This document shows, piece after piece, positions 6,681 through 59,782 of a DNA stretch of 64,000 bases. The stretch lies in assembly GCA_002269645.1 (NCBI GenBank), contig NIVC01001057.1, forward strand, positions 186,001-250,000, in the 5' to 3' direction. The first letter of the stretch is position 1; each line of letters starts with the position of its first letter. The notes under the pieces are model-generated. The model was not told where the DNA came from, ran no database searches, and saw only the letters and a program-made list of their open reading frames with translations. Position numbers and translations under genes: made by a program. This stretch comes from Macrostomum lignano (Eukaryota).

Positions 6681-7362
6681 GCCTTCGTCCCAAACCACTA
6701 CGAGCGGATGTGAAGTTCAAGCACAGAATCTCATTTAAAAATAAATTCCCCATTTCTAACACCTCCCTTCCTATAGCTCAGGTCCCAGGACTCGCAGGAC
6801 TCAGCATAGAAACGGTCCACATAGCAACAGACCAGGGGGCTTCCACTTGTGTGTTCGTTCCGTGAAAATTCGTTCCGTGGGAATTTCGTTCACGGAAGCT
6901 CTTTATGACTGCGATTATGCTAATGAGCCGTGAGCCCAGCTGCAGCAGCGCGGGGATGCGGCAGCTTCGGGTTGCCGGGCCCGGCCAAGTCAAGCGCGAA
7001 GTCCCCTCTTCTCCCTTCGTCTCCCAGCTTTCTGCTCAAAATATTTTACTGCTTCCATGCAGAAGCCGGCGAGACTTGGGAATTTTATTGGGCCGAGGGA
7101 CCGGCAGGGGGAGGCGATGGGATAAAAATCCCCACTTTCATTTTATACGAAGGGGTGGAGAAATTTATGCCCGGCAATGAGCAGAGAATTAGTCAGGTGA
7201 AAGAAAGCATTTTATGAGAGGATGAGGGGTAAGCATGGGGACTCGGTCAGGGACGCCTCAGACTAGAGCTCTGGACTGGAAACTGAGCTGTGACTTTCAT
7301 CAACTTTAGGCCTGTGGTGAATTTTGCTCACTTACAGCATATTGTGCCTGTAGAGAGCTGTG

Positions 7363-7616
7363 AACACCTGTCCAGAGCAGGGGAACACCTGTCCAGAGCA
7401 GGGGAATACCTGTCCAGAGCAGGGGAACACCTGTCCAGAGCAGGGGAATACCTGTCCAGAGCAGGGGAACACCTGTCCAGAGCAGGGGAATACCTGTCCA
7501 GAGCAGAGGAACACCTGTCCAGAGCAGAGAAACACCTGTCCAGAGCAGAGAAACACCTGTCCAGAGCAGGGGAATACCTGTCCAGAGCAGAGAAACACCT
7601 GTCCAGAGCAGGGGAA
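7363..7616. repeat. Intronic minisatellite, 21-bp unit ACCTGTCCAGAGCAGGGGAAC (mirror 30324-30577)
   Basis: Tandem units; 7-aa periodic ORFs. Confidence 0.93.
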
Positions 7617-8373
7617 GCTGGCAAGGCTGACTAAACTTCAGCTTTTTGGCTTGAGGCGTCCCTAGTTCCATTTTTTGAGTGTCCCACAGCCTTCTGTGCC
7701 AGCAGTTCAAGCACTTGCCTTAATTGCTCAAAGCATGGAGCAACACGGTATTACATGTACCAAAGTTGATACAAGTTCATGTGGGATTTCAGAGCAGCTG
7801 GTGCAGTCAAACGGAGCTCCAGATATTCTGTTTAGAGCTCCCTGACTCTGGAGGACAAATTCTGCAACAGATGGGATCAGGGAGCGCCGACTCTGCTGTG
7901 TCTCAGGGCGGGATTTTATGCGTCCATAGAGTGGGATTAAACTGACAACCGGCCGCTTTTATCCCCTCCCGATTCCCCACAAATATTAAATCCCCATCTA
8001 TTCAATTCCAACCCGTGTCAGGTTGAAAATCTGCTTTTGTAGGTGAATTTGTTGATTTTTCAGCAATGACACGCATCCGACGCGCCCCCATTGTGTTGGG
8101 AAAATTCTGGCTGTCTGGGCTGCTGCTCCCGTCACCTACACATGCTGATCTCAGCTCACCCCCTGCCACCGTCTCCTTTCTCTCCATCTCTCTCTTTCTC
8201 CCTCTCCCCTTCTATCTCCTTTGTGACTCGTTCGCGTATTGTATTTTTCTCCATCTCTACTCAATCTCCATCGCTCCCTCTCCATCTCTACTCGATCTCC
8301 ATCTCTCCCTCTCCATCTCTACTCAATCTCCATCTCTCACACTCGCCCCCCTCCTGGCCTCCGTCCGTGCAGC

Positions 8374-13251: not shown

Positions 13252-14193
13252 TCAGCAGTGGCCTTCGTTTGCGACAGCGGCAGGTGCTGAGGGGTAATAG
13301 TACTGCGGGTCTGCGGGAGGATCGGGCTTGATTTAATTTCATTCGAATTTGCGATGCTTGCCTACTGATAGTAGGCTGTCGTGAAAGTGGCGTTTTGGGT
13401 GCTTTGTTAAATAAAATAATGAGATTTTAAAATGAATTAAAGCTCCCTATATCGATAACTTCTGAATTTTCTTAGAAACCCCCGGATGAATCTCCAACCT
13501 GAAGTTTCCGGAACCCCTGGATGAATCCCCAACCTGAAGTTTCCGGAACCTCTGGATGAATCCCCAAACTGAAGTTTCCGGAACCCGGATGAATCCCCAA
13601 CCTGAAGTTTCCGGAACCCGCGGATGAATCCCCAACCTGAAGTTTCCGGAACCCGGATGAATCTCCCGTATGAATCCCAGTTGAAACAATGTCCTAAAGC
13701 CCCGTGGGATCCCGACAAACCAACCCCTGAACCTGGCGAGGCCCCTCAGCACTCACTCATCCTGGTGTGCGCGCCGTAGGCGGACTGCAGAAACCAGGAG
13801 GAGGCGGCGTGGCATCTTGGTGAGCGCCGTAGTGCTGGCTGGCGTAGTGCTGGCTGGCGTAGCCTTGATAGGCGCGGCTGCCGCGTACTCCGCAGCGTAG
13901 CTGGCGGTGGCTCCGTACTGGTGCGCTGCCGCAGTCCGTAATGCGCTCGGAACTCGTCCAGCTTCGGACTGTCCGACTCCAGATGCAGCGCCGGCTGCTG
14001 CGGCGGCTGAGGAGGCGGTGCTGTTGCTGATGCTGCGGCGGCGGCTGCTGAGGCGGCTGGTGAGGCTTGAAGCGACTGGCGGCTCGGTTGCCAAGTGGTT
14101 GCTATGGCCGTGATAGCCCCGGCGTGCCGGACGCCAGCGGAGGCCGGGTAGAACTGCGGCTCCTGCGGCGGATGCCGTAGGCCGCCGCCGCTG
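13252..14193 (-). pseudogene. Truncated duplicate of the Pax2/5/8 3' end (part of exon 4 at 13757-14193; exon 5 at 13252-13310), frameshifted and cut by the gap
   Basis: Reverse complement of 23663-24611 with several 1-nt indels (about 13810, 13873, 13930, 14070-14078). Confidence 0.8.
13480..13665. repeat. About 33-bp tandem repeat GGATGAATCCCCAACCTGAAGTTTCCGGAACCC (mirror 24200-24385, in the last Pax intron)
   Basis: Several tandem units. Confidence 0.9.
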
Positions 14194-21546: not shown

Positions 21547-24500
21547 GAGTCAGCACCAGCAGCTGCTGCTGGCCGGTGACTCTTCGCCGGGAAGCTCTTC
21601 CGTCAGCAACGGCGCCCTGTCGGATGAGAATCAGAACAGCCTGCAGCAGCAGCAGCAACAGCAGCAGAGGAAACGCCGACACATGCAGATGCAGCACTTG
21701 AATGACCCGGGTGAGCTGCTTTGATTTCTGTGGCGTTTCTCAAGCTCGAATCTTTACCAGCTCGAATCTTTACCAGCTCCAATCTTTACCAGCTCCAATC
21801 TTTACCAGCTCGAATCTTTACCAGCTCGAATCTTTACCAGCTCGAATCTTTACCAGCTCGAATCTTTACCAGCTCGAACTTTACCAGCTCGAATCTTTAC
21901 CAGCTCGAATCTTTACCAGCTCGAATCTTTACCAGCTCGAATCTTTACCAGCTCGAATCTTTACCAGCTCGAATCTTTACCAGCTCGAATCTTTACCAGC
22001 TAGAATCTTTACCAGCTCGAATCTTTACCAGCTCGAATATTTACCAGCTCCAATCTTTACCAGCTCGAATCTTTACCAGCTAGAATCTTTACCAGCTCGA
22101 ATCTTTACCAGCTCGAATCTTTACCAGCTCGAATCTTTACCAGCTAGAATCTTTACCAGCTCGAATCTTTACCAGCTCGCATCTTTACCAGCTCCAATCA
22201 TTACCAGCTCGAATCTTTACCAGCTCCAATCATTACCAGCTCGAATCTTTACCAGCTCGAATCTTTACCAGCTCGAATCTTTACCAGCTCGAATCTTTAC
22301 CAGCTCGAATCTTTACCAGCTCGAATCTTTACCAGCTCGAATCTTTACCAGCTCGAATCTTTACCAGCTCGAATCTTTACCAGCTCGAATCTTTACCAGC
22401 TCGAATCTTTACCAGCTCGAATCTTTACCAGCTATTGTAGAATCTTTACCAGCTCCAATCTTTACCAGCTCCAATCTTTACCAGCTCAATCTTTACCAGC
22501 TCGAATCTTTACCAGCTCGAATCTTTACCAGCTCGAATCTTTACCAGCTCGAATCTTTACCAGCTCGAATCTTTACCAGCTCGAATCTTTACCAGCTCGA
22601 ATCTTTACCAGCTCGAATCTTTACCAGCTCGAATCTTTACCAGCTCGAATCTTTACCAGCTCGAATCTTTACCAGCTCGAATCTTTACCAGCTCGAATCT
22701 TTACCAGCTCAATCTTTACCAGCTCGAATCTTTACCAGCTCGAATCTTTACCAGCTCGAATCTTTACCAGCTCGAATCTTTACCAGCTCGAATCTTTACC
22801 AGCTCGAATCTTTACCAGCTCGAATCTTTACCAGCTCGAATCTTTACCAGCTCGAATCTTTACCAGCTCGAATCTTTACCAGCTCGAATCTTTACCAGCT
22901 AGAATCTTTACCAGCTAGAATCTTTACCAGCTAGAATCTTTACAGCTAGAATCTTTACCAGCTCCAATCTTTACCAGCTAGAATCTTTACCAGCTAGAAT
23001 CTTTACCAGCTAGAATCTTTACCAGCTAGAATCTTTACCAGCTAGAATCTTTACCAGCTAGAATCTTTACCAGCTCCAATCTTTACCAGCTAGAATCTTT
23101 ACCAGCTAGAATCTTTACCAGCTAGAATCTTTTCCAGCTAGAATCTTTACCAGCTAGAATCTTTACCAGCTAGAATCTTTACCAGCTAGAATCTTTACCA
23201 GCTAGAATCTTTACCAGCTAGAATCTTTACCAGCTAGAATCTTTACCAGCTAGAATCTTTACCAGCTAGAATCTTTACCAGCTAGAATCTTTACCAGCTA
23301 GAATCTTTACCAGCTAGAATCTTTACCAGCTAGAATCTTTACCAGCTAGAATCTTTACCAGCTAGAATCTTTACCAGGGCCTGCAACCCGGCCTTCCATT
23401 CATTTCAGACGCCACCAAGGAGCAGCAGTGCCACCGCCAGTCGCCACCGGATCGCCTAGAGGTGAGCATATTTGATTTATGTTTCCAAGGAATACAAAGC
23501 ATTCCCATGGCCGAGTGACTCATTGAATAGAAATTCCAACCTCTTTCACAATCCAGTGGCTGTCACCGTCCAAGCGGATCAAAGTGGAGTCGCCAATTCC
23601 GGGCTCGAACCCCGGACTTCTGCCTGCACTCAGCGCCCAGCAGGCGGCGGCAGCGGCGGCGGCAGCGGCGGCGGCCTACGGCATCCCGCCGCAGGAGCCG
23701 CAGTTCTACCCGGCCTCCGCTGGCGTCCGGCACGCCGGGGGCTATCACGGCCATAGCAACCACTTGGCAACCGAGCCGCAGTCGCTTCAGCCTCACCAGC
23801 CGCCTCAGCAGCCGCCGCCGCAGCATCAGCAACAGCCACCGCCTCCTCAGCCGCCGCAGCAGCCGGCGCTGCATCTGGAGTCGGACAGTCCGAAGCTGGA
23901 CGAGTTCCGAGCGCATTACGGACTGCCGGCAGCGCACCAGTACGGAGCCACCGCCAGCTACGCTGCGGAGTACGCGGCAGCCGCCGCCTATCAAGGCTAC
24001 GCCAGCCAGCACTACGCCAGCCAGCACTACGGCGCTCACCAAGATGCCACCGCCGCCTCCTCCTGGTTTCTGCAGTCCGCCTACGGCGCGCACACCAGGA
24101 TGAGTGAGTGCTGAGGGAGCCTCGCCAGGTTCAGGGGGTTGGTTTGTCGGGATCCCACGGGGCTTTAGGACATTGTTTCAACTGGGATTCATACGGGAGA
24201 TTCATCCGGGGTTCCGGAAACTTCAGGTTGGGGATTCATCCGGGGTTCCGGAAACTTCAGGTTGGGGATTCATCCGGGGTTCCGGAAACTTCAGTTTGGG
24301 GATTCATCCAGAGGTTCCGGAAACTTCAGGTTGGGGATTCATCCAGGGGTTCCGGAAACTTCAGGTTGGAGATTCATCCGGGGGTTTCTAAGAAAATTCA
24401 GAAGTTATCGATATAGGGAGCTTTAATTCATTTTAAAATCTCATTATTTTATTTAACAAAGCACCCAAAACGCCACTTTCACGACAGCCTACTATCAGTA

Positions 24501-29449: not shown

Positions 29450-29690
29450 AGATGGAGATTGAGTAGAGATGGAGAGGGAGAGATGGAGATCGAGTAGAGA
29501 TGGAGAGGTAGCGAGGGAGATTGAGTAGAGATGGAGAGGGAGAGAGGGAGATTGAGTAGAGATGGAGAGGGAGAGAGGGAGATTGAGTAGAGATGGAGAG
29601 GGAGCGAGGGAGATTGAGTAGAGATGGAGAGGGAGAGATGGAGATCGAGTAGAGATGGAGAGGGAGCGATGGAGATTGAGTAGAGATGGA
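29450..29690. repeat. GA-rich repeat (GAGATGGAGAGGGAG/GAGATTGAGTA), expanded relative to the left copy 8262-8340
   Basis: About 155 bp longer than its mirror. Confidence 0.8.
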
Positions 29691-31921
29691 GAAAAATACA
29701 ATACGCGAACGAGTCACAAAGGAGATAGAAGGGGAGAGGGAGAAAGAGAGAGATGGAGAGAAAGGAGACGGTGGCAGGGGGTGAGCTGAGATCAGCATGT
29801 GTAGGTGACGGGAGCAGCAGCCCAGACAGCCAGAATTTTCCCAACACAATGGGGGCGCGTCGGATGCGTGTCATTGCTGAAAAATCAACAAATTCACCTA
29901 CAAAAGCAGATTTTCAACCTGACACGGGTTGGAATTGAATAGATGGGGATTTAATATTTGTGGGGAATCGGGAGGGGATAAAAGCGGCCGGTTGTCAGTT
30001 TAATCCCACTCTATGGACGCATAAAATCCCGCCCTGAGACACAGCAGAGTCGGCGCTCCCTGATCCCATCTGTTGCAGAATTTGTCCTCCAGAGTCAGGG
30101 AGCTCTAAACAGAATATCTGGAGCTCCGTTTGACTGCACCAGCTGCTCTGAAATCCCACATGAACTTGTATCAACTTTGGTACATGTAATACCGTGTTGC
30201 TCCATGCTTTGAGCAATTAAGGCAAGTGCTTGAACTGCTGGCACAGAAGGCTGTGGGACACTCAAAAAATGGAACTAGGGACGCCTCAAGCCAAAAAGCT
30301 GAAGTTTAGTCAGCCTTGCCAGCTTCCCCTGCTCTGGACAGGTGTTTCTCTGCTCTGGACAGGTATTCCCCTGCTCTGGACAGGTGTTTCTCTGCTCTGG
30401 ACAGGTGTTTCTCTGCTCTGGACAGGTGTTCCTCTGCTCTGGACAGGTATTCCCCTGCTCTGGACAGGTGTTCCCCTGCTCTGGACAGGTATTCCCCTGC
30501 TCTGGACAGGTGTTCCCCTGCTCTGGACAGGTATTCCCCTGCTCTGGACAGGTGTTCCCCTGCTCTGGACAGGTGTTCACAGCTCTCTACAGGCACAATA
30601 TGCTGTAAGTGAGCAAAATTCACCACAGGCCTAAAGTTGATGAAAGTCACAGCTCAGTTTCCAGTCCAGAGCTCTAGTCTGAGGCGTCCCTGACCGAGTC
30701 CCCATGCTTACCCCTCATCCTCTCATAAAATGCTTTCTTTCACCTGACTAATTCTCTGCTCATTGCCGGGCATAAATTTCTCCACCCCTTCGTATAAAAT
30801 GAAAGTGGGGATTTTTATCCCATCGCCTCCCCCTGCCGGTCCCTCGGCCCAATAAAATTCCCAAGTCTCGCCGGCTTCTGCATGGAAGCAGTAAAATATT
30901 TTGAGCAGAAAGCTGGGAGACGAAGGGAGAAGAGGGGACTTCGCGCTTGACTTGGCCGGGCCCGGCAACCCGAAGCTGCCGCATCCCCGCGCTGCTGCAG
31001 CTGGGCTCACGGCTCATTAGCATAATCGCAGTCATAAAGAGCTTCCGTGAACGAAATTCCCACGGAACGAATTTTCACGGAACGAACACACAAGTGGAAG
31101 CCCCCTGGTCTGTTGCTATGTGGACCGTTTCTATGCTGAGTCCTGCGAGTCCTGGGACCTGAGCTATAGGAAGGGAGGTGTTAGAAATGGGGAATTTATT
31201 TTTAAATGAGATTCTGTGCTTGAACTTCACATCCGCTCGTAGTGGTTTGGGACGAAGGCATGGGGTGCCAGCAGAGGGGATTGGGGTGCCAGCAGAGGGG
31301 ATTGTGGTGTCAGCAGAGGGGATTGTGGTGTCAGCAGAGGGGATTGGGGTGCCAGCAGAGGGGATTGGGGTGCCAGCAGAGGGGATTGGGGTGCCAGCAG
31401 AGGGGATTGGGGTGCCAGCAGAGGGGATTGGGGTGCCAGCAGAGGGGATTGTGGTGTCAGCAGAGGGGATTGGGGTGCCAGCAGAGGGAATTGGGGTGCC
31501 AGCAGAGGGAATTGGGGTGCCAGCAGAGGGAATTGGGGTGCCAGCAGAGGGAATTGGGGTTGTCAGCAGAGAGGATTAGGGTGCCAGCAGAGAGGATTAG
31601 GGTGCCAGCAGAGAGGATTAGGGTGCCAGCAGAGAGGATTGGGGTGCCAGCAGAGGGAATTGGGGTGCCAGCAGAGGGAATTGGTGTATCAGCAGAGGGA
31701 ATAGGGGCTCTTGTAACTCCTGAAAACGAAACAGAAGTGCAGCCGAAAGACCAAGTCGGTCATTTCAAATCGTAAATTACCAAGCAAGTCGCCATGGCGA
31801 GCTTCAGCCAGCCGCAGATGCTCAGGAAAATCTGCTTTTGCAAAGAAACCTGGGAAGATTCTCTGCCTAACGCAGATGGATGTTCAGTTAAACAAAGCCT
31901 ATTATTCTATTGTTATTATTA

Positions 31922-32474
31922 ACTTACAAAAAAGTTTAGCGAGTGCCGTAGGCAGTGCTGCAGTTCGCGGGGGAGGTGGCGGTTTGTTGTATTTATACAC
32001 AGTGTAGGCGTCTGCAGGCGGCTTCTGTCTGCTGCTGCTGGGCGGTGGCTATCTGGCTGCGGCCGCTGCCTGATAAATGCTTATCTGCCGCTTATCGACT
32101 GGGGCTGCCGGGCGAGTCTGGGAGCGAAATCGGCTGCCGCAACGCACCGCTGGTTTTATTCCGCGCCGGCGATAAGCGGCCTTAACTGATCTCCCGTCAG
32201 CGGGGGGGGGGCGCGGCGGGGGGCCGGCCGATTGGCTGGCCGGGGAGAAATCCCGAATTCCCGGCCAACCCGGACAGCGGGCTGGGGAAGAGGAGAAATG
32301 GGAAAAGTGAGAAAGTGTGAGACGGTTCGAGGAACTGGGGGGGGGGGGAGAGGCTGGGAGCGGGACTGCGGCAGCGCAAAAATGGGGATTAGGCGCGCCT
32401 GTTTTGGGAGATAAGCGGATCGGGGTTCGATTTTCTCGGCCACCCCTCAGCCCGAGCTGCTCTTCCTTATCTCG
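31922..32474 (-). promoter_or_regulatory. Putative GATA promoter and first exon (right copy)
   Basis: Mirror of 5466-6018; TATA at 31990-31997. Confidence 0.55.
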
Positions 32475-39258: not shown

Positions 39259-42200
39259 CTAGAGAAACTGCGGCGCCTGCTGCTGCTGCTGCTGCTGTGT
39301 CGGCGGCGTCGGCGGTGTCGGCGGCGGCTGCGGCAGCTCCGTGAAGACGAGGCGATGCTCGACGACCCGCCTGACGAAGCCGTCGCTGCCGCGCAGCAGC
39401 GAGTCGAGCCTGGCGGCCTCCGAGTCCGGCAGCGCCACGGAGAAGCGGCGCAGGATGGCGGTGAGCAGCGTGAAGGCCTCCATGCGGGCGAGGGCCTCGC
39501 CGGGGCAGGCCCGCTTGCCCAGGCTGAACGGCAGCAGGTGGCGGGACGGCTGGAAGCGGCCGTAGCGGAGGAAGCGGTCGGGCTGGAAGCGGTCGGGCTC
39601 GGGGAAGTGCAGGGGGTCGTGGTGCACACCGTACAGGTTGGGGATAATGCGGGCGCCCTTGGGGACGCGGTAGCCACCGATGGTGGTGCTGTCCACCGCG
39701 CGCCGGACTACGCCTTCGGGTAGCAGGGAGACGAACCGCTGCACCTGCGGGTGACGGGCGGGTTGGGGGGGGGGCGGTTCGATGCTCGGGACTGCGAGTT
39801 GAGATCTGGGATTTTGGCGTTTGGGATTCGAATCTGAGAACCTGGGAACACAGATATCGAGGAATCGAGTTGAAGAAATTGGGGCTAAAGGAATATGACT
39901 AACCGTCTAGGATTAGGAAGTCTGGGATCACAGACCAGACACTGAGGATCACAGACCAGACACTAGGGATCACAGACCAGACACTAGGGATCACAGACCA
40001 GATACTGGGGATCACAGACCAGACAGAATGGATCAGAGACAAGACACAATGGATCACAGACCAGACACAATGGATCAGAGACAAGACACAGTGGATCAGA
40101 GACAAGACACAATGGATCAGAGACAAGACACAATGGATCACAGACCAGACACAATGGATCACAGACCAGATACTGGGGATCACAGACCAGACACAATGGA
40201 TCACAGACCAGACACTAGGGATCACAGACCAGACACTAGGGATCACAGACCAGATACTGGGGATCACAGACCAGACAGAATGGATCAGAGACCAGACACA
40301 ATGGATCACAGACCAGACACTAGGGATCACAGACCAGACACAATGGATCACAGACCAGACACTAGGGATCACAGACCAGACACAATGGATCACAGACCAG
40401 ACACAATGGATCACAGACCAGACACAATGGATCACAGACCAGACACAATGGATCACAGACCAGACACAATGGATCACAGACCAGACACAATGGATCACAG
40501 ACCAGACACAATGGATCACAGACCAGACACAATGGATCACAGACCAGACACAATGGATCACAGACCAGACACAATGGATCACAGACCAGACACTGGGATC
40601 ACAGACCAGACACTAGGGATCACAGACCAGACAGAATGGATCACAGACCAGACACTGGGATCACAGACCAGACAGAATGGATCAGAGACAAGACACAATG
40701 GATCACAGACCAGACACAATGGATCACAGACCAGACACAATGGATCACAGACCAGACACAATGGATCACAGACCAGACACAATGGATCACAGACCAGACA
40801 CAATGGATCATAGACCAGACACAATGGATCACAGACCAGACACAATGGATCACAGACCAGACACAATGGATCACAGACCAGACACAATGGATCATAGACC
40901 AGACACTAGGGATCACAGACCAGACACAATGGATCACAGACCAGACACAATGGATCACAGACCAGACACAATGGATCACAGACCAGACACAATGGATCAC
41001 AGACCAGACACAATGGATCATAGACCAGACACAATGGATCAGAGACAAGACACAGTGGATCACAGACCAGACACAATGGATCACAGACCAGACACAATGG
41101 ATCACAGACCAGACACAATGGATCAGAGACAAGACACAATGGATCACAGACCAGACACAATGGATCAGAGACAAGACACAGTGGATCAGAGACAAGACAC
41201 AATGGATCAGAGACAAGACACAATGGATCACAGACCAGACACTAGGGATCACAGACCAGATACTGGGATCACAGACCAGACACAATGGATCACAGACCAG
41301 ACACTAGGGATCACAGACCAGACACTAGGGATCACAGACCAGATACTGGGATCACAGACCAGACAGAATGGATCAGAGACCAGACACAATGGATCACAGA
41401 CCAGACACTAGGGATCACAGACCAGACACAATGGATCACAGACCAGACACTAGGGATCACAGACCAGACACAATGGATCACAGACCAGACACAATGGATC
41501 ACAGACCAGACACAATGGATCACAGACCAGACACAATGGATCACAGACCAGACACAATGGATCACAGACCAGACAAAATGGATCACAGACCAGACACAAT
41601 GGATCATAGACCAGACACAATGGATCAGAGACAAGACACAGTGGATCACAGACCAGACACAATGGATCACAGACCAGACACAATGGATCACAGACCAGAC
41701 ACAATGGATCACAGACCAGACACTAGGGATCACAGACCAGACACAATGGATCACAGACCAGACACAATGGATCACAGACCAGACACTTGTGGTCAGGGAT
41801 CAGGGACCAGAGGCTAAGGATCAAAGAGATCAATTCCGAAATTAATTATGAGCATAGATAATGCCCTTCAGTGTCCTGAAAAAGTCTGAGAAGATACCAC
41901 CTGTCAATATACACCCGTGAGGACAATCGCAACAGCCGAAATGTCCCAGCCACGTGCTCCGCAGATTGCAGGCCGCACCGTGCGCAGAATTAATGACAGC
42001 CGCAGGGCACGTGCCCGGAAATGCAAACAGCGGCTTGCAAAATAAGTAAATTTGGACTGGCTGGCTCTGCCCTGCCGAAGCTAAGCGCAAGCTCAGCGCA
42101 AGCACAATGCCAAGGCTGCTGTTTTTCTTTTAAGGCAAACAATGGCGCTTAATTGAGCCTTGAGTTGCCGATGCGCTGGACAAATGCTAAATGGCAACTC

Positions 42201-46449: not shown

Positions 46450-46507
46450 ATGAAGGGCGGCAGACCTGGGGTCAGAGAGTTTGCCCAGCGGTCGGCTTGG
46501 CTTCTCC

Positions 46508-47583
46508 TGTAGAGTGTTCTACCTCCCGTAAGAAGACATAAAAGTGTTAATGTACTACTCACACATTTTATTTAGTAGTAAATTGAAGAGCATGAATAAA
46601 GGTATGCTTTGAACTATAAGTATATTCGGACTAACCAATAGAAAGAGAGAAACCTCGAGCATGCTAATTTTAGAAATCACCCAATCACGTGCGACCAACA
46701 ACTGTCAATTCAAACCCCACCTTCAAGTCATCATTTGGTTTGCACTCGGGTTGCACCCGGATGAACCAATCAAAGTCTACCAGCTACGGTAACCAATCAT
46801 GCGCTTTTACAGTAGACTAGTTGCGCAACTTTCTACCCTGTCATGCTTGACAGCCACCGAATCGTGACCCTTTGACATTTGCGAAGACAGTGATGTACGA
46901 CCTCGAGAGAGGTCTGAACGCCTATAAATACAAGTGGTCCGGAACGGACCCGGAGCCAGAAAATCTCCAAGGGAGAGAAGCTCCGAAGAGGAAGCTCTAG
47001 TGAAGCCTTCCTGAAGAAACTCGCGTCGTGGACGAGTTCTTGCGGTAAGCCTTACTCATTTGCGCCCGTTGGTTGAGACGTCTCGCTCAAGTCTATTGAG
47101 ACTTGAGTTTATTTGAGTCTGCTGAGACTCTTGAGTCTGTTTAGACTCCACTGGTTGCAGTCTCCAGAAGGACTGCCCCTGATAGATCTTAGAAGACTAT
47201 CAGTGGTTTCCGGAGCCATACCTAGAGTGCATAGAGGCACTACTAGAAGGAGTAGGCTTATATTAAACCGCAGTTTGGCGCAGGGATCCCCATTGTTAAT
47301 TTGGAAGCTTCCGATTGGTCCGAACTACAGATACCGGCCGGCAAGAAGTCAAGAGGACAAAGGAGATAACGGACCAGATCAACTGTTACCAGGCGCCTAA
47401 ACTTCCTGAAGGACAGGAAAGTTACTGATCGCGATACTACGGACGAGGATTATTACGAGAGCTCTCATTTAAGGACTCAAAGGTAATTGAATACCTTCAT
47501 TTGATTACTGGGTTGCCTAGCTACAGAGCTAGAAGTGATTGTTCCTTGATTACAGTTGAGGACTGGTAATAAGGAACACATCA
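46508..47583 (+). repeat. 5' LTR (1076 bp)
   Basis: Starts TGTAGAG, ends ACATCA; several CCAAT boxes and TATAAATA at about 46924. Confidence 0.95.
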
Positions 47584-47600
47584 ATTGGTGATCTCGCCCT
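47584..47600 (+). other. Primer-binding-site-like sequence (TGGTGATCTCG...)
   Basis: TGG two nt after the LTR end; cognate tRNA not identified (partly Trp-like). Confidence 0.55.
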
Positions 47601-48279
47601 CTCGGCACTACTCAAACTTTTGAGCAATAGCCTGGCCAAGCTATTGTAAAGTGACGAAAGAGCGACTTCATTAATTTTGCGCGCACGTGTTAGAGGTAAC
47701 ACTTTTCGACACTTTTCGATTTTTGTACGATTTGAAACTCGAGTAAAAGTTTAGATATACAGGCTTGAGTACCTGTCAATTTTGAGTAACGTTTGAGCAC
47801 GCGTGTTAAATTTTTGTTTTTATCGAGCTCGAGCAAGAGTAAACCTTAAACAAAACCGAAAACAACGTCCGGTACACTGAAAACAAACCGAAAAATAATC
47901 AATACACACTAAAACAAAACCGAAATTAAAAACACTTGACGAAAGCTAAAACAAACCGAAATTTGATAAAACGTGACAAGGCACGTCACGAAGACAAGAA
48001 AGGCCTTTGAAAAAAGCAAGAAGCAGCTGCACTTCAAGCACTTTAAAGATACACTTTGCGGGACGCCGCATAAGTGCGAAAATCAGCCAGCGAATAAGAG
48101 GTCAGAAAAAGCAGCCAAAAGCCGAATTCCGTTCAAGGTCAGACATAACAAATTGAGGTGTCAAAAGCGCCGCGAGACAATCAGTTACAACCGAAGTTTA
48201 TTTCGAAAGAAACACCACACTGGAAGATCCATTACAAATCGACCCAGACCTAGAGCTACCGTTCTATCCCATCAACAAC

Positions 48280-49260
48280 ATGGCGCGGCGCAATCCAACG
48301 GTGCACAGAGATATCAAAGAGACAGTTGGCACCTTTTCTATGGAAAAAGACTTTAACACCTTTGTTGATCATTTTGACCTGGTATGTAGGGAATACAACC
48401 TACAAAATCCAGAAAAAGCGCAACTGTTGCCACCACTCCTCCAAGGCACTGCACGAGAGATTTATGGTAAACTAGATGCGGCAACACAGCAAAACTACCC
48501 AGCATTAATCATTCAACTGCGCGCGCATTTCAACCGCTGTGGCACAAACAGATCAGTGCTACTGCACAAGTTGCATAACAGAAGGATGCAGCCAACCGAA
48601 TCCTTCCTGACCTTTGTGGACGACATCCGTCAGATAATTAAGGCACTGCATCAGCCAACACTGCCAGCTGCAGACCAACCACCTCTGGGTGCGGCAGAAT
48701 TAGCCGCTAGAGAGCGACACGATTGATGGATCGCGAACAAAATCTGATTCTGCACGTAATAAACAATGCACAGCCGTCACTCCGAGATAGACTTCTACGC
48801 GAAAACATTGAAACCGAGGAAGACCTTTTACGGTGCGGAATGCAGTGGGAAGCAAGCGCTCCACTAATGACAACCGGCAACACAGAAGTGCAGAAACTGA
48901 CACAGCAACTAAACAAACTGATGCAACATCAAACAGCCGTTATCGCCGAACAAAAAAGACGAAATGAACGAGCCCAAGCCAGATGCTATTACTGTGGACG
49001 AGAAGGACACTACCAAATAATTGTCCTCATCGGTCAACAAGAAATGATATGCCGCGACAGCCATTCAACAGACGGAAGCCGCAAAAACCATGGCAACAGC
49101 ATCAAAATTGGCAGCAGCAAAACACGAAACGCTTCGGAAACAATGGCTACAGACCGCGAAACGCCAGATACATGCCCAAGCAACCAACGCAAGCGATGCA
49201 ACGATATGCAAACGCCATCACGTACACACCGGAAAGCGAACAGCAAGAGCAGCAAGTCTT
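48280..49260 (+). CDS. gag: Gag: Ty3/Gypsy capsid plus CCHC zinc knuckle (frameshifts at about 48722 and 49012)
   Basis: FNTFVDHF...LLQGTAREIY...L.NRRMQPTESF capsid pattern; CYYCGREGHY/(P)NNC knuckle restored by adding one base. Confidence 0.8.
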
Positions 49261-49929
49261 CACGATAGACGACTTAGAAATGGACTTCACTATCAATGAA
49301 ATCGACTGGCTCGATGCGGAGAGCAGCGAAAAGACAAAAAACATCAGCATGGTCGAAATGAAAGAAACTAACATTGACAGCGAAGAAGAAAAGACAGAAG
49401 TGAGCACAGAAAAAACATTGCCAAGCGACATCAGTGAAAGAAAAGAAGAAACAAACAAAGGCAACGACAAAGAACTGGCAACGAAGGATGACAACGAAAG
49501 AAGCAACGACGGAAATACAGAGATGGAAGAAGAACAGCAAGAAGAAAGCAGCGATCACGATTATGAGATGCAGAATGACGCTGATGACAACCAAGCCGCC
49601 GACAAAGAACATGAAGACGGAAGGCACAAAGGAATGGAAGAAAGAAATCTAAGCTCCGACAGCGATCAATGCTACGAGATCCGATATAAACGAAATGGTG
49701 AAGCCTACATTCAAACGGTCGACTACAAGGCCGAAGTGAGGTACCGCAGACAATGGAGTGACACAACTACAACATCGGAAGAAAGCAAGGAAGAAAATGA
49801 TGAAGACGACAAGCAGCGGAACGAATCGGATGCCTTGCGCTCGGAAACGCCAATGGAACAAGAGGAAGAATACGATGCGGACGTAGAAGATAACGAATGG
49901 CAGCCGCAGCCAATGCCAGCAAAGACAAC

Positions 49930-52020
49930 GGCAACGTTCAGAAAATGGCGATTCTGGATATTCTGGATCATCATAATACTACTGACGGCAGTAGTCACCA
50001 AAGCAACAGCAATGGAAAACCAATGATATGTCCAACGGATGCGCATATCCAACCGATGATCTACAAGATACCAACCGACATCAAATGCAGCTACTTCAAG
50101 ACAAACCAGACGAAGCCAAAAAGATCACAATCGATCTCTACAAAGCCAACATCAAGAAGCATCGACAACTTGGAATCGTGTGCTTCAGAGACAAGCACCT
50201 AGTCGAAAAAATATGGCGAGGACAATGGAACAGAATCCGATTCCGACAGCATGAGCTACATGTGTCGCACGCTGACTGCCTACGATGGAACCAGACATTG
50301 TTCTCCAAAGATGGTGTACTAGAACCTGATGAAAAGGTCGGCAACGCACAACTCTTCCGAACAAAGAATGTGGCAAACGGTCGATATGTCCACTATAATG
50401 AAAGATGGCCTGACTACACGGCACGCAACAGCTACCTAATCAGGAATATTCCATTCTACCACAATCCTTTTGAAAAAATGGAGTCGCTACAACTGCAATT
50501 AAGTGACTGCCGATACAGCAAAGGATGGTGTCCAACGCCGATACTGCGGAATGAGGAACTATACAGCTTACCGTTGAGTCCAACATATCATCAAGACTAT
50601 CGATGGCAAATTATACGCAGAGGCGACTCACGATATGAAGAACCATCTAAGTCACGACAATACTTCTTCGCGTGGAAGTTGAGCCGGAAATTGACTGCAA
50701 GCTTCAAAAGTATCACACAGTTGAAGGAGGCTACTGTCAAACACGTTTTTGGCAAAGTCAGGAGACTTGGCACTGACGTTTCAAAAGAAACCAGTCGAGC
50801 AAAAACTGAAATGCAAGGATACAGACAAGACACTATTCATCTCGGAACAAGAGATACCAGTCTACGTAAAAGATGACGACAAACAAACCTTTCTGGCGAT
50901 CATCAACGGAACTTATCAACAGCAGGAACAACAGAACAGACGACGACGAGACATCGAACGTCCCAAACTGGTGTCAAACCGACTACTGTCAGCAAAGATA
51001 ACGGCTTTGGATCACAATCTACACAACCAGTTAAACCACTTGCATCGAACACTGGTCCAGCTAACTTGCAAAATGCACGCAATCAACTTAAATTATGCCA
51101 GACAAAACTACTATGTCAACCCTACGATGACTTTTCGTAAAATCACCGGAATGACGAACGTTTTGGCAGTTCCAATATACGAGCATCTGTTGATATACAA
51201 GTGCACGCCGATACAGCACTTTAACATCTTGCCGTCGAACACGTCAACAACCTGCTACGACAAGCCAAGGATTGAAGCGTTCTACGAAGGAAAACGAATT
51301 CAGGGATTCTTGGACACGGTACACAACATCATCGTTGGCACCGCAATACCGAGACCTTGCACCACGGCAGCAAACTATTATCAACTGGACAATGCACTAC
51401 ACGTCATCAAAACAACTGGAACGACAGCAAACATCACAGAACCGGAAGTAATCGTCGACGAAAACTACGACATGGAGGATTTGAAAATCCGATTCAACAG
51501 AACGAAGTATACGCCATTCGCCGATATCCAACTTGACGAGATAACACCAGGATGGACGATCAACGACTTCTTGCAAGCGTTCATCACCCAACGCAAGATG
51601 ATTCACCAGCTGTTCACAAGAAAGGACAAAGGAACCGGGACAGGAAGATTTCCCGTCCTTGTTTCAATGGACAGCGCCATCAAATCATTTTGGACAAACA
51701 GCTTCTGGGAGCTGCTCAATGGAAGAGGCAGTCTCTATCAAGGATTCATCTTCTACGGTGCTTGCATTGTGTGGATTGTCACGGCAATCTTCATCATTTC
51801 GTCGATCGTACGGTGCTTCAGTCAAACTTGTCCAAGAGCTAAGAAGACAGTGAATGCCATAATGCAAAGAACGACAACGGAAGGCGACAACAGTTTAGAA
51901 CTAACAGAAACTGCACATCGTGAGGTTCAAGGGCAACCGACACTAGCAACGCGGCTATATCCATCGATTCCGACAACACCAACGGCACCAAGAATACAAC
52001 CACCTAACTATCAAGCAGAA
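49930..52020 (+). CDS. env: Envelope glycoprotein, class III (herpes gB-like); signal, ectodomain, furin site, TM, tail; four frameshifts (about 50020, 50120, 50677, 50750)
   Basis: Hydrophobic signal RFWIFWIIIILLTAVVTKATA; RRRR|D at 50938; N-glycan sequons NQT, NGT, NTS, NIT, NRT; gB-like blocks TCK...NPT...ITG...LIYKC and CYDKPRI...GFL...RPCT; TM at about 51742-51810. Confidence 0.75.
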
Positions 52021-52049
52021 CAGCAAGACCCAAAATGGCCAGAGAACTA

Positions 52050-55000
52050 CGTATGTACTCTACACGCCGAAATTGGCAAAGCCATGGCTCAAGTGGTAAT
52101 CAACAATCTACCATGTCGAGCGCTACTCGACTCCGGCAGCTCCATCACAGTTATATCAAAACAACTGTGCAACAAGCTACGACTTGCTCTACGGCCAGCA
52201 ACAATCGCAGTTGCAGGAGCAGGAGGACATTCGCTAAACATTCTGGGAAAAGCCGACATTGATTTAAGAATCGCTAATAAACATTTGACAGTTCCACGTA
52301 CGTCATCGACAGACTCCCAAACCAGGACGTTATTGTTGGCATCGACACGTTCAAGCAGCTTCGACTACCATTGACCTTCGACTTCAATAAGCAAACGTTT
52401 AAGATCGACTCGGTAGAACAACCATTGATCAACCAGATCCGAGTACTACCAAAAGTAACATTGCAACAAGATGTCATCATCCAACCGGAGAGCGCCTGCT
52501 GGATAAAGGCAAAGGCAACTAACGCAACGGAGGAAGCAATGATATTCGACCCAAACAGAAGAGTCACGGCTAAACACCAAATTATGATGCCTACGGCACT
52601 AGTACTGGTTGCAAAAGATAAACAGCTGCCAGTACAAATATTCAACCCGAACACAGAAACGGTTCATCTACGACAAGGAATGTGCATCGGTCATCTCAAC
52701 ACCCAAGCATCGGTTATGCTGATTGAGCAAGCGACTCCACGACTAACAGAGGAAGAATTTCAAAAGAAGATCAATTTGGATGACAGCCCGATTACGGAAC
52801 AGCAAAAGAGGAAAGTTCGACAGCTGTTGTGGAAGTACAACGACGCTTTCTGCCACCATGACTACGACATCGGACGAGCCAAGGACATCAAACAGGAAAT
52901 CAAACTTCTGCCGCACACGGAACCAATTCAGTGCAAACCGTACCCGATCGCCAAGCATCTGCAACAGCACTTCGATGAGATTATCGACAAAATGCTGAAA
53001 CACGGCATCATCAGCAAAGCCATTTCAGCATACTCATCACCATGTCTCTTGGTGCAAAAGAAGGAGACTAACGAAAGACGACTCGTATGTGACTTCAGAC
53101 TACTGAACAAGTACATACCGACGGATCAGCAAAGCCTACCGAAGATCTCCGAACTACTAGCAAAGCTCAACACGGCAAAATTGTTCACAGTGTTCGATCT
53201 ACGTCATGGATTTTGGCAAATTGAAATCGAGAAAGAGTCACGACAGTACACGGCTTTCAAAACCTACAATGGACAAGTATACGAGTACAATCGATCGCCG
53301 ATGGGACTCAGCAACAGCCCAGCAACGATGAGCCGACTAACAGCATACATGCTTGCAGGATGCACGAACCTGTTGCACTATGTTGACGACATCTTGGCCT
53401 ACGGAGAAGACTTCGAACGACTCTATGAAGCGACGGAGAAGGCCCTCGCGCTTATACAACGTCAAGGTCTGAAGCTACAACCAACTAAATGCAAATTCTT
53501 CCGAGACAACGTGCGTTACCTGGGACATCAGGTGACAGCCAAAGGAATTTCACCGGACCCAGACAACGTGGATAAAGTGAAAAAGTTTCCTACGCCAACT
53601 AGCAAAACGAAGGTCCAATCATTTCTTGGACTTGCGCAATACTTCCGAAAGTTCTTACCCAACTTCGCGAAGACAGCAAAGCCGCTGTACGACCTGCTCA
53701 AGTTCGACAAATGGAAGCAGGAGAATTGGACACAAAAGCAACAAGAAAGTTTTGACGAAATCAAACGACAGCTGACATCAGACGCACTGCTACAGCATCC
53801 GGACTTCGACAAACCCTTCATCATCGAGACAGACGCCTCAGGAACGGGACTCGGAGCAGTCCTACTACAGGAAACTGAAGACAAAAAGGAACGACCTATA
53901 GCCTACGTCAGTCGAGCACTTAAACCGAATGAGACAAAATGGTCAGCTACGGAACGAGAACTACTAGGAGTTCTGTTCGCCCTACGACAGTTTCACTACT
54001 ACATCTATGGATCTCCATTACAGACGATAGTACGCACAGATCATGCACCGCTGACCTACGTCGTAACTACAAAAGGACAAACAAACAACCGACTCATCAG
54101 GATGACACTCAAGATCCAGGACTACAACTACAAGCTCGTCTACAAACCAGGAATTACTAACAAGGCCGCGGACGCCCTGTCAAGAGCCTACGAAGTCAAC
54201 GCCATTCATCCAATCCCTAACATCAAGGAATTGGTGGATGAGACTGAACACGACAACTTCTACATAGCAGTTAAAAACAACGACAAGGACATCAAGCTCA
54301 GCCCCGTGGAACGAAAATTCCTGCGCAAGCAGCGACAACATTTAACAATCAACAAGTCACGACTCTACTGGATGAGTGACAACAAACCTAAAATCTACAT
54401 GCCATATTCGTTTAGGCAGGCAATTCTCAACGAGCTGCACGACAACCCACTCGCTGGACACCTGTCGGCAGCCAAAACCATTGCAAGAGTGGAGCAATAC
54501 TACTTTTGGCCAAGCATGCATGGCGACATCAAGCAGTATTGCAACAACTGCCACTCATGCGCAGCATCAAAGACAGGACGACGACAAAAACCACAGCTAC
54601 AATCGATACCAAAGTCAACAACTATGGACTGTCTCAGCATCGACATCACCGGACCGCTGCCACCGAGCTGTCTCCATGGCATAGCCTACACCTACATCCT
54701 AACAGCCTTGGACATTTTCTCAAAGTTTGCTATTGCCATACCAATACCGGACATCACAGCTCAGACAGTGGCAATGGGTTTCTTCAACGACATCATCTGC
54801 AAGTACGGTACGCCAAAGAACCTCACATCGGACAATGGATCGCAGTTTACGTCTCAACTCTTTCAGCAAGTGGTGAAGATCCTCAACATCACGCAGATCT
54901 ACACATCGACCTACAATCCGAAGGCGAACATGGTTGAAAGGTTTCACCGCAACCTACACGAGATGATTACACACTTCGCGCATCAACAACCGGACGACTG

Positions 55001-55613
55001 GATCATCTATCTGCAAGCAGTAACAATGGCCTACAACAGCGCTATTCATCGATCAACGGACAATACGCCATTCTTTCTAATGTTTGGGCGAGACTTCCAG
55101 CCGCCAAACCTATTGGCACAGCAACTACTACCATCGCAATATGTGGAAGTCCCGACGTCCATTCAAAAGTTCGTCACGCAACTACACCTCGCATGGAAAG
55201 TAGCCAAGCACAACATCGACAATCAGGTGGCTCTAACCACCGGCACCGACACGAGATCGACAACTCTGACAGCCGGCGACATCGTCTACCTGCACTATCC
55301 GCCGCAACAGACGCACAAACACGCACAGAAGTACAAAGGACCATATCGAGTGGTCCAACTAACGTCACCGACAACGGCACGCCTGGCCAATGTGCAAGAT
55401 CCTCATCAGCACCAATTCTACGTGCACATTCATCGACTAAAGAAGATCAACACTGACACGACAACGTTTTTACCGTCACTAGACAACGCTGATCGCACGC
55501 GTTCGGCGAACCGCCACATCGCAACAAAACACGAGGAGACACAAACATCAACCGAGAACAGCAACACGGCTACAATCTGCGACCTCGTTAAGTTGCGAAA
55601 ACAACCCGTGTAG
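52050..55613 (+). CDS. pol: Pol: aspartic protease, RT, RNase H, integrase (one frameshift at about 52294)
   Basis: ALLDSGS (52129); DFRLLN, DLRHGFWQI, PMGLSNSP, YVDDIL; ETDAS, ERELL, TDH, ADALSR; HDNPLAGH/CHSC, IDITGP, SDNGSQF, VERFHR, GPY. Confidence 0.97.
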
Positions 55614-55702
55614 AGACCGGGTCAGAATAGCTCTACAGCTTCGCAAGCTTGTCGTAAGAGGCGACTAATCTGAGCGACTTCAAACTTCAAGCGACGACGA
55701 CA

Positions 55703-55915
55703 ATGGGCAACGCACTGTCCAAACAGGCGCCCCAACTACAGCAACTCTACGAATGCCCAATATGTTTAACTGATGACTTGGCTGTCAAGCCACCAATTAT
55801 TTGTGAAAACAGACATCGCATATGCGGACAATATTTAAGCGACTCACATTATATTCAGCTCTGGCAGAATTGCCCGATAGGTAGAAGTAGTTTGCGGCAG
55901 TGCGCCTATTGTTAG
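55703..55915 (+). CDS. 70-aa accessory ORF: N-myristoylation motif plus degenerate SINA-type RING
   Basis: Strong start context ACAATGG; MGNALS; C18xxC21...C34xxxH38xxC41xxY44...C57PIG60R plus terminal CxxC. Confidence 0.55.
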   Translation: MGNALSKQAPQLQQLYECPICLTDDLAVKPPIICENRHRICGQYLSDSHYIQLWQNCPIGRSSLRQCAYC

Positions 55916-56133
55916 TCTTGGCGCACATGTCAATACTGTAACCAAAAACATTTTATTTGCATGCGTATACTTACCTTTAAATAACTTTTATAACCAACGC
56001 TCTTAACTACCCATTACTAAATACCTGTAACACTTGTGACAAATGATTATTATAAAGACATGCTTGAACTTTTTATGCGTTTCAATCCTCTATTTAAAAC
56101 TCGGGACGAGTTTTTTGTAAACATGGGAGATTT

Positions 56134-57208
56134 TGTAGAGTGTTCTACCTCCCGTAAGAAGACATAAAAGTGTTAATGTACTACTCACACATTTTATTTA
56201 GTAGTAAATTGAAGAGCATGAATAAAGGTATGCTTTGAACTATAAGTATATTCGGACTAACCAATAGAAAGAGAGAAACCTCGAGCATGCTAATTTTAGA
56301 AATCACCCAATCACGTGCGACCAACAACTGTCAATTCAAACCCCACCTTCAAGTCATCATTTGGTTTGCACTCGGGTTGCACCCGGATGAACCAATCAAA
56401 GTCTACCAGCTACGGTAACCAATCATGCGCTTTTACAGTAGACTAGTTGCGCAACTTTCTACCCTGTCATGCTTGACAGCCACCGAATCGTGACCCTTTG
56501 ACATTTGCGAAGACAGTGATGTACGACCTCGAGAGAGGTCTGAACGCCTATAAATACAAGTGGTCCGGAACGGACCCGGAGCCAGAAAATCTCCAAGGAG
56601 AGAAGCTCCGAAGAGGAAGCTCTAGTGAAGCCTTCCTGAAGAAACTCGCGTCGTGGACGAGTTCTTGCGGTAAGCCTTACTCATTTGCGCCCGTTGGTTG
56701 AGACGTCTCGCTCAAGTCTATTGAGACTTGAGTTTATTTGAGTCTGCTGAGACTCTTGAGTCTGTTTAGACTCCACTGGTTGCAGTCTCCAGAAGGACTG
56801 CCCCTGATAGATCTTAGAAGACTATCAGTGGTTTCCGGAGCCATACCTAGAGTGCATAGAGGCACTACTAGAAGGAGTAGGCTTATATTAAACCGCAGTT
56901 TGGCGCAGGGATCCCCATTGTTAATTTGGAAGCTTCCGATTGGTCCGAACTACAGATACCGGCCGGCAAGAAGTCAAGAGGACAAAGGAGATAACGGACC
57001 AGATCAACTGTTACCAGGCGCCTAAACTTCCTGAAGGACAGGAAAGTTACTGATCGCGATACTACGGACGAGGATTATTACGAGAGCTCTCATTTAAGGA
57101 CTCAAAGGTAATTGAATACCTTCATTTGATTACTGGGTTGCCTAGCTACGGAGCTAGAAGTGATTGTTCCTTGATTACAGTTGAGGACTGGTAATAAGGA
57201 ACACATCA
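56134..57208 (+). repeat. 3' LTR (1075 bp)
   Basis: Differs from the 5' LTR by one G indel and one A/G substitution that I could find. Confidence 0.95.
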
Positions 57209-59782
57209 CTCCATCAGCGTGAGCAACTGCTCAGGAAAAACAGGAAAATTGGCTACAGGGAAAGAAAATTATCGGGACGGGAGGATCTTTGCCAGAAAGA
57301 AGCCGCGGAGCAATCTGCACCTGCTGCTTCAAGGGGAGGGGCGAAGGCGAAGGGGAAATGAGATTTTCGATGGGCCCATCTGCTTCCAAGGTCTGCTAAC
57401 CCTCGATCTTAGGGCCGATTCGAGCTTCGACCAGAGGGCTGACACGATTTGATTTTTGTTTGAGAAGGGGTGCGCAACGAAATGTAGTCCGCGTTCTTGA
57501 ATTTCGTGTGCCTGCGTTGCCCCTTTCCGGCGCAGCAAAAACATTTGTTTGGGGGGAATCCACTTGGTGGATCAACTGATACGCAAGCATGCAGCAGCTT
57601 ATAAGTTTCTAAAGACTTCCATGTGTGTCTTGTTTTCGGTTATGATTTTTATCTACTGCATAAATTAAAACGAGTTAAATTTTTAACATTGCAAAACCAC
57701 TAGACTGCCCGAGCCTTATACACATACGCGTACATGTACAGCATTATGCACACCTCTATATCTTATAATGTTCGCTTATATCAACTCTAAAGTTGCATAA
57801 ACAAAGGCCTTCCCTCTTATCTGAGTGCTCAGTGGAGGCTATTTATATACTAGCTGCTAGGCTTGTAAATGTAAATGTAAATAGCAATTAAAGTCTGATC
57901 CCTCAAAACTTTCACCAGCCTTTAGTATATCACTCCAAACCAATGCGGCTTAACTCGACATTACTAATGCTTACACTCATGCTACTTTCAGTAGAAAAAT
58001 GTGTATTTGCAAGGATTATAAAAAACTGAAAAGATATGATAAGCCAGCCAGCCAAAAAGAAATTGAAGAGAAAGATATTGACTGAACAACTTTATGGTAA
58101 AAATTGGGGGAGAGCGTTATCATTTTTTATCAACTAAAATGGAATCAACTTAGTACTAACTTGTACAACTTATGTACATGTAAGATGATCGAGTTGGCCA
58201 GTGTCAACTCAAGCACTGGAAATTGAGCCCGAAGTAAAGCTATGGACAATAGCTAAGTCGCGGCGTCCTTTAAAATAAATTTCCCTTGTCCTGTCCTTTA
58301 CCTCCCAGTGCTTTAGGCTTTAATCCACAAAGGAGTATTTCATAGGGGACATTTACACTCTCATCGACAGTTAAAAATAATTTAAATTTGAAATCAAGCA
58401 CCAGAATCTGTAGAAAGCGACGTAAAAAGCATTTCAACACTTCGTACTTGTTATAAAGTGTTTATTTTTTGGTTTAATTTAAAAAATCAAAAGTAATTTA
58501 AATATTAAAAAAACTGTTTGAAAATTAATATTACATGGCGGAAACGAACATTATAAAGTCACAAAGAGTGAAAAAAATCAACGAACGTGCAAACAAGCCC
58601 TCCTAAATTAACACCTGAATAAACCCTGAATTAGATGAGATTTGGTCAGTAACCCTTATTTATTTACATTTTCTTAGAATAAAAAATATCCTCTGCTTTT
58701 GGTTTGCTTATGCATAATCATAATGATGAGGGTGTATAGCTAAATAGAATGCTTCTTAAAAAGTAAACTAGTAACAAGCCCTCTGCCTATACAGTAGAGC
58801 CTACTAACTAGTTAATAAAAATGAGTTGTATGAAATATTGTTATATGTATGCTAGAATCCAAAGCCCAATAAGGTTTTATAGTTACTAAGTTAATTCTAC
58901 TAGGCCTAGTCTCCTTCCATGGGCCATGGCCTTAGTATCTAATAGTACTATCATAGGTATAAATCCATTTTTTCTATGTTTAGATCAATTAGAGCCTAGT
59001 TGAATTAAAATTATTTAAATTAGCAACTCAAAATCCATTGGCCTAGCCAACTTGATTTTAAAAAATTAATTTAAAAAATGCCAAGTTGCTAATTTGTAAT
59101 TTCAAGAATATGACTATATTTAAGGCTAAGCCTATACATTGCTTATATTAGGGACTTACAAGTAGGGAATGCAACCTGGGACCCTAGGATCCCAAAATCC
59201 TAAAATTGGGCTCAAATCCTAGGATTCTAAATCCCAAGATTTTGATTAGGCCTAAATCCTAGGATCACAATTATCTGGTATTCAAAAATTTGAGGATTGA
59301 CCATTGGTATCTTAATCTCAGTTTGGAAAAACTCAATCATTTATTCTCAAATAGTACTACCTATAGCTGATTGAGCTATTTGTCAGGTGAAAATCAACAC
59401 CTATTTTGTCTTGCTGTGATTTATTTATCTTTTAAGCATGCAGACTAGTGAGAAAGCTAAGGCTGCAGGGATACAAAACTAAAGTTATTGGCTAGATTGT
59501 AAGGAGATTTTAAATGTAATAATATACATATAGCCATATGCATACATTATTTATAGACTAATATAATTATTATTAAAAAACTTGTGCATAGAGCCTAAAG
59601 CAATAAAAGTCAATTCCTCATTGTTTTCAATTGCAGCGCTATAGCTTGCTAGATGGGAGTCAAATCATTCTTCATTTGAACTCTCCCTCTATCTCAAACC
59701 TAGCTAAAACCAGGGGGGTTTTAACCTTGTATTGATCAGAAAAAAGACCTCATTCTTAGCACTGTCAGGACACCCTTTAGAT

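Follow-up and report, generated by a model that had tools for sequence, protein, structure and literature searches.

The closest described relatives of the locus reported here are LTR retroelements whose envelope resembles herpesvirus glycoprotein B (gB). In the available portions of their survey, Chary and Hayashi (eLife 2026, PMC13524379) list 221 elements with a gB-type env among 1,512 Ty3/gypsy elements across animals, report elements ordered GAG-ENV-POL from Nematoda, Bryozoa and Platyhelminthes, with this order in all flatworm elements, and argue for an ancient acquisition followed mostly by vertical descent. One of their entries, Platyhelminthes_Rhabditophora_Mlig_errantivirus_2 (Supplementary file 1, row 1445), comes from the same species as our locus, Macrostomum lignano, carries a gB-type ENV and is reported in 16 copies. 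The accessible text also cites nematode endogenous retroviruses (Sacco et al. 2022) that have a metavirus-related Pol and an env placed before pol, as well as the env of Drosophila gypsy, which lets particles enter neighboring cells. It further states that herpes gB depends on gH/gL, and calls the action of a gB-type errantivirus Env without these partners unknown.

We analyzed a window of 64,000 nucleotides of M. lignano DNA (GenBank assembly GCA_002269645.1, contig NIVC01001057.1, positions 186,001 to 250,000 of the forward strand), in which a first-pass annotation had pointed out a gB-like envelope at 49,930–51,810. The env stretch is enclosed by a full-length LTR element at window positions 46,508–57,208, with a 4-bp target duplication on both sides and the following features:

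46,504–46,507, forward strand: left copy of the 4-bp target-site duplication (right copy at 57,209–57,212)
46,508–47,583, forward strand: 5′ LTR of 1,076 bp, TG...CA, from the LTR comparison
47,586–47,597, forward strand: tRNA primer-binding site, 2 nt past the LTR, 12 of 12 positions identical to the Mlig_errantivirus_2 site
48,280–49,019, forward strand: gag, with a capsid-like region and a zinc knuckle that begins at 48,984; the frame is broken near 48,720 and 49,020
49,020–49,939, forward strand: acidic linker, in a frame shared with the first membrane segment (ORF 48,968–50,026)
49,940–50,014, forward strand: basic patch, then membrane segment 1, a predicted internal signal anchor (hydropathy 2.19)
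50,015–51,741, forward strand: predicted class III (gB-like) ectodomain, 578 residues in the uninterrupted relative P0009
50,938–50,949, forward strand: RRRR furin-type site directly ahead of the core helix (motif and profile alignment)
51,742–51,798, forward strand: membrane segment 2 (hydropathy 2.43)
51,799–52,089, forward strand: predicted cytosolic tail, in frame from env to protease (ORF 50,725–52,374)
52,090–52,400, forward strand: aspartyl protease with its DSG at 52,129; the frame is broken near 52,296
53,055–53,534, forward strand: reverse transcriptase core (RVT_1, E = 2.2e-28)
53,727–54,125, forward strand: RNase H (RT_RNaseH_2, E = 2.8e-37)
54,402–55,613, forward strand: integrase zinc finger, core and C-terminal region; the frame changes near 55,556
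56,134–57,208, forward strand: 3′ LTR of 1,075 bp, from the LTR comparison

The Pfam matches give the coding order gag, acidic linker, env, protease, reverse transcriptase (RT), RNase H, then integrase. Two TG...CA LTRs, the target-site duplication and the primer-binding site are those of a Ty3/gypsy element, as is a protease-RT-RNaseH-integrase order free of BEL/Pao marker domains; neither Peptidase_A17 nor DUF5641 is matched in the element at E ≤ 1 (Pfam), and both are present in the BEL/Pao polyprotein P0019. The two LTRs are one substitution and one indel apart, and this near-identity implies a young insertion. Judged by its LTRs, primer-binding site, target-site duplication and pol order, the element is an M. 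lignano LTR element of the Ty3/gypsy type that inserted recently. Its gag gives weak Pfam matches (DUF1759, E = 0.0016; zf-CCHC, E = 0.01) and is 30% identical to the Gag of a second M. lignano family, represented by P0011 (E = 2e-19). Past the pol stop and before the 3′ LTR, a short remnant (55,700–55,910, forward strand) shows a RING-type cysteine motif by eye and is possibly a decayed accessory ORF.

The 12-nt primer site, identical to that of Mlig_errantivirus_2, occurs in 1 of the 1,512 rows of the available table of PMC13524379, with the same 2-nt gap to the LTR, and the published element with this site is classed there as Ty3/gypsy by GyDB HMMs. The spacing from LTR end to LTR end is 9,728 for Mlig_errantivirus_2 versus 9,625 for the window copy, which is frameshifted. 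From this difference of ~100 bp, the window element may be a sister subfamily.

The retroelement lies ~2 kb upstream of a long uninterrupted cytochrome P450 ORF (43,026–44,516, reverse strand; Pfam E = 4e-31). A further P450-like C-terminal piece is visible by eye at 39,259–39,906 on the same strand, and minisatellites lie between the two pieces. Window positions 1–36,700 form a large inverted duplication rich in minisatellites, with arms, such as those at 5,695–8,344 and 29,596–32,245, that are 100% complementary; it may be either a genuine palindrome or an artifact of assembly. A heat-shock-element-like word forms two arrays of five copies each, at 13,501–13,651 (forward strand) and 24,212–24,362 (reverse strand), which mirror each other within this duplication; as they are tandem repeats, they do not count as independent evidence for an excess of the word over chance. 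The interval between the arrays contains no non-repetitive ORF that starts with ATG and reaches 250 aa. The heat-shock element motif GAAnnTTCnnGAA has no exact occurrence in either LTR. We dropped a link to the heat-induced families of PMC12801592 since the LTRs lack GAAnnTTCnnGAA and none of three short element motifs occurs in the available supplements of that paper; its main text, as available, contains no mention of an envelope or glycoprotein.

The first-pass annotation had likened parts of the env by eye to the gB core helix and domain IV, with a furin site between the halves. All of the motifs that it cited occur in the window and share one frame of ORF 50,725–52,374: RRRR at 50,938–50,949, QLNHLH at 51,028, NPTMT at 51,118, CYDKP at 51,253 and PRPCT at 51,349. 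Its limits almost exactly bracket two hydrophobic segments, at 49,958–50,014 and 51,742–51,798. These segments supply the signal/anchor and the C-terminal membrane anchor expected of a class III protein on either side of a cysteine-bearing ectodomain, which in P0009 has 12 Cys and six N-glycosylation sequons; three Cys are invariant across 14 aligned relatives. The most distinctive feature of the env, absent from the earlier annotation, is its in-frame position between gag and protease. One window ORF (48,968–50,026) runs from behind the zinc knuckle into membrane segment 1, and a second (50,725–52,374) leads from the ectodomain across segment 2 to the protease motif.

Profile searches place the envelope with class III fusion proteins. 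Pfam PF24664 (Monjiviricetes fusion glycoprotein) matches the env stretch at E = 1.3e-5 with 23.9 bits, under the curated cut-off of 27. With an alignment of 14 relatives, all 45 PDB profile matches at E ≤ 10 are herpesvirus gB, the best being Epstein–Barr virus (EBV) gB at E = 1.5e-15. That alignment pairs the furin site, the core helix, the NPT motif and the domain IV pattern C..CY..P..G.L..C..Y of the two proteins, and so upholds the likeness that had been drawn by eye. The window ORF alone gave no phmmer match in the PDB at E ≤ 10. In the ESM Atlas, only class III families are found among the rows listed, and the window ORF receives a low recognition value (1666).

Neither the window ORFs nor P0009 match Baculo_F at E ≤ 1 (Pfam), and F protein is absent among the matches listed by Foldseek and VIA-align, though such a listing is no proof of absence. 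One relative, P0013, matches Baculo_F at E = 2.8e-4 over residues 154–261, which include its membrane anchor. We found no hydrophobic fusion peptide after RRRR, where the residues are polar and charged, and thus not the F-type pattern. Profile and structure searches together bear out the view that the Env is class III (gB/chuvirus/nyamivirus-type) and not of the baculovirus-F type. We rejected a host-protein origin, as host PH domains rank below gB, with Z of 6.3 or less over ~80–100 residues.

The fold was predicted on the ectodomain of P0009, a public copy 98% identical, and carried to the window through sequence identity. The AlphaFold model, of a monomer, has a pLDDT of 65.6 and a pTM of 0.41, with residues 477–579 below pLDDT 50; a single-sequence model of window ORF 50,725–52,050 was set aside at a pLDDT of 39.6. 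Model and profile both place a long core helix, 47 residues at positions 324–370 in the model, ahead of a β-rich domain IV, as in class III proteins. In the Foldseek comparison that the first-pass annotation had proposed, HSV-1 gB is the best PDB match (E = 2.9e-20) among 116 matches at E ≤ 0.001, and the rows listed are all gB, with low whole-chain TM-scores of 0.22–0.25. In the viral library, the glycoproteins of Beihai rhabdo-like virus 3 and Midway nyavirus come first (E = 6e-25 and 1.4e-24), followed by an orino-related virus, an entomopoxvirus protein and then gB; these viral structures are only 9–14% identical to the model. Among 48,161 chains compared by VIA-align, the top six entries are gB (Z 10.6–6.8), with pseudorabies virus (PRV) domain IV alone aligning at Z 10.0 and an rmsd of 5.5 Å over 164 residues. 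For model residues ~30–305, PH domains and rhabdovirus G both align at Z 5–6 over ~80–200 residues, in keeping with a class III PH-like region in which an elongated β fusion domain is nested. Two hairpins are candidate fusion loops, with three and four aromatics plus basic residues, one of them below pLDDT 50.

The env stretch is 96–99% identical to M. lignano proteins, and the public relatives are gene models. A search for longer proteins returned one match from 1,143 candidates, an M. lignano polyprotein at 97% identity, in whose cluster all ten members are named M. lignano. P0009 (PAA64473.1, 1,914 aa, M. lignano) runs stop-free from membrane segment 1 through env to the end of integrase and maps colinearly onto the window in six segments, the three best of which are 98–99% identical. 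With the C-terminal 297 residues, a library search gave 13 matches at E ≤ 0.001, the best being P0011 (PAA86625.1, 2,852 aa) of the second M. lignano family, which joins Gag-TM-Env-TM-PR-RT-RH-IN in a single chain. P0011 also carries a Thr-rich, mucin-like insert of ~190 aa ahead of its furin site and is, by our estimate, too long to be the sole M. lignano element of the published table. The gap from segment 2 to the protease is ~130–150 residues in both families. The junctions recur in P0015 (nematode; env-PR-Pol), P0017 (Gag knuckle-TM-env) and P0023 (env-TM-PR), and P0019 has an env of the same family at the end of its BEL/Pao polyprotein. For the window family, we infer continuity from Gag to env from the frame of the window linker and from these relatives, rather than from one protein record. 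In word-based searches, neither the window ORF nor alignment A2 gave a homolog at E ≤ 0.001.

The window copy as assembled cannot make the Env protein. Eight frame breaks lie near 48,720, 49,020, 50,017, 50,110, 50,675, 50,731, 52,296 and 55,556; the four between 50,017 and 50,731 fall in the ectodomain, and the N-terminal half of env is spread over several frames. None of the six window segments aligned to P0009 contains an in-frame stop. Among 24 listed sequencing runs, 20 contain half or more of the searched words, with no RNA run listed among them, and in contigs of all four public runs the length differs from the window at at least six of the eight breaks (best 12 of 20 rows). The homopolymer context of the breaks is similar to background and therefore lends no extra support to sequencing error. 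Because there are eight indels, no stop in the P0009-aligned segments and almost identical LTRs, we estimate that assembly error fits the breaks somewhat better than decay does. Contigs of three of the four runs also join 47,583 to 50,770 at low depth, from LTR end to mid-env, which probably marks either the insertion of one copy into another's env or a derivative formed by deletion.

We favor, with a probability of roughly 0.7, the reading that this gB-like class III Env, in frame from gag to protease, is likely the membrane-fusion protein of enveloped particles that pass from cell to cell. In an uninterrupted copy, a single polyprotein would be made at the endoplasmic reticulum (ER). Gag would remain cytosolic, anchored by membrane segment 1, which would act as an internal signal and probably be cut by signal peptidase. 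The ectodomain would enter the lumen to be glycosylated, trimerized and furin-cut at RRRR, and segment 2 would stop transfer, such that protease-RT-RNaseH-integrase would hang from the cytosolic Env tail. Since Gag, Env and Pol would derive from a single polyprotein, their output would be 1:1:1, and Pol would travel into budding particles along with Env until released by the protease. Stand-alone class III proteins of RNA viruses carry out pH-triggered fusion. A fusion step in the element, probably also triggered by pH, would deliver the core to a neighboring stem or germ cell.

The frame changes between the gag, env and pol pieces of the window copy would also be expected if Env and Pol came from separate spliced or frameshifted messages, with some of the changes programmed. 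We regard this as highly improbable, given that the breaks fall within domains (knuckle, ectodomain and protease), which led us to reject programmed frameshifting, that the six breaks within the P0009 span are read through in other copies and that the run contigs depart from the window in length at at least six of eight breaks. No joint from gag to protease that skips env is found among the contig joints listed, and contigs cannot prove absence. The first-pass annotation had further proposed an independent capture or horizontal spread of a viral fusogen into a Gypsy lineage, which goes unsupported insofar as something new or recent is meant. The reading that a viral glycoprotein entered the window family recently and in this lineage alone, whether by capture or by horizontal transfer, could draw on the nyami-like RNA virus glycoproteins that are the nearest viral-library structures, on the same env family in the BEL/Pao element P0019 and on the non-monophyly of GAG-ENV-POL elements in the Pol tree, as given in the available text of PMC13524379. 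We nonetheless consider it improbable. Viral matches are just 9–14% identical, and none of the ten library matches looked up (of 13) is named as a viral protein, six having no informative name. The best sequence relative is the second M. lignano family, which has the same layout at an env identity of 28% and an RT-RNaseH identity of 40%, so that both regions are deeply diverged, and gB-type elements number 221 of the 1,512 published. For the nematode P0015, the corresponding identities to the window family are 25% and 31%. In an env tree of 14 rows with long branches, the M. lignano envs group with P0012 and P0013 at a support of 100/99; the deep nodes are poorly resolved and we infer no donor. 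Taken from sequence comparison, these divergences fit an old association of env and element, with no sign of recent capture, and the presence of the same env family in P0019 leaves room for an ancient exchange of env between superfamilies.

A genuine class III Env might instead serve mainly as a membrane scaffold whose anchors organize Gag and Pol at the ER, with no other cells infected. The env lies inside the only reading frame and is hence not easily dropped, gH/gL partners are absent and the accessible text of PMC13524379 gives no activity data for gB-type errantivirus Env, all of which would suit such a role. We find it unlikely, in that anchors alone would suffice for a scaffold, and the furin site and cysteines are kept among families only 19–28% alike, which argues that the fusogen fold is maintained. 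An excess of silent changes over the C-terminal half of the ectodomain also speaks against it: copies from four further runs show 110 variants in 50,760–51,740, and of the 40 with the best support 34 are silent, compared with 31% expected under a transition-weighted neutral model. The variant rows are a subset, with subfamilies pooled and variants scored singly, and the resulting ratio of ~0.08 is therefore rough. This silent excess indicates constraint on the amino acids of the env and not on the frame alone.

A more tentative proposal, to which we give somewhat less than an even chance, is that Pol is made as the tail, on the cytosolic side, of a gB-like trimer and not as a Gag-Pol fusion, with the enzymes packaged through Env. 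Were this so, retrotransposition would require Env even when confined to one cell, and the protease would be switched on as Env clusters. The locus would matter more if its polyprotein topology meant that Env carries Pol into particles. With transgenesis, regeneration and two families that are actively copied, the flatworm would then be a tractable animal system for asking whether a gB-type fusogen that stands alone takes a retroelement into stem or germ cells. The literature searched contains no statement on packaging of Pol via an Env tail; most subscription papers lay outside its scope, and the evidence for novelty is weak for that reason. The words 'polyprotein', 'single ORF', 'fused' and 'in-frame' do not occur in the main text of PMC13524379 as available, and Mlig_errantivirus_2 is not in the gB comparison table of the available source.

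The predicted fusion protein shares with herpesvirus gB (EBV 3FVC, HSV-1 5V2S/2GUM, HCMV 5CXF, PRV domain IV 5YS2) a PH-like region, a furin site ahead of a long core helix, the NPT motif, the domain IV cysteines and a C-terminal anchor. It differs in its ~11–13% identity, its shorter ectodomain, its position within a retroelement polyprotein, the absence of gH/gL and a cytosolic tail that runs on into Pol. The G proteins of nyamiviruses, chuviruses and their relatives (PF24664), together with BEL/Pao chuvirus-like env, provide the best Pfam and viral-library matches, whereas identity to nyamivirus and chuvirus G is 9–14%, and the env of the BEL/Pao element P0019 sits at the polyprotein end, as opposed to between gag and protease in the window. 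The nematode endogenous retroviruses mentioned at the outset reportedly read gag-env-pro-pol in one continuous ORF and have a nyami/chuvirus-like glycoprotein. The nematode relative P0015, with env-PR-Pol in a single chain, is a point of likeness to those elements, although the window element comes from a different phylum. As an LTR-flanked gypsy element in which a gB-type env separates gag from pol, our locus conforms to the HSV/gB-type errantiviruses; its kind and gene order are published, and, on the available parts of PMC13524379, its family probably is too. What our analysis contributes beyond this published picture is support from profiles and predicted folds for the M. lignano protein, another such family in that genome and indications that env is under purifying selection.
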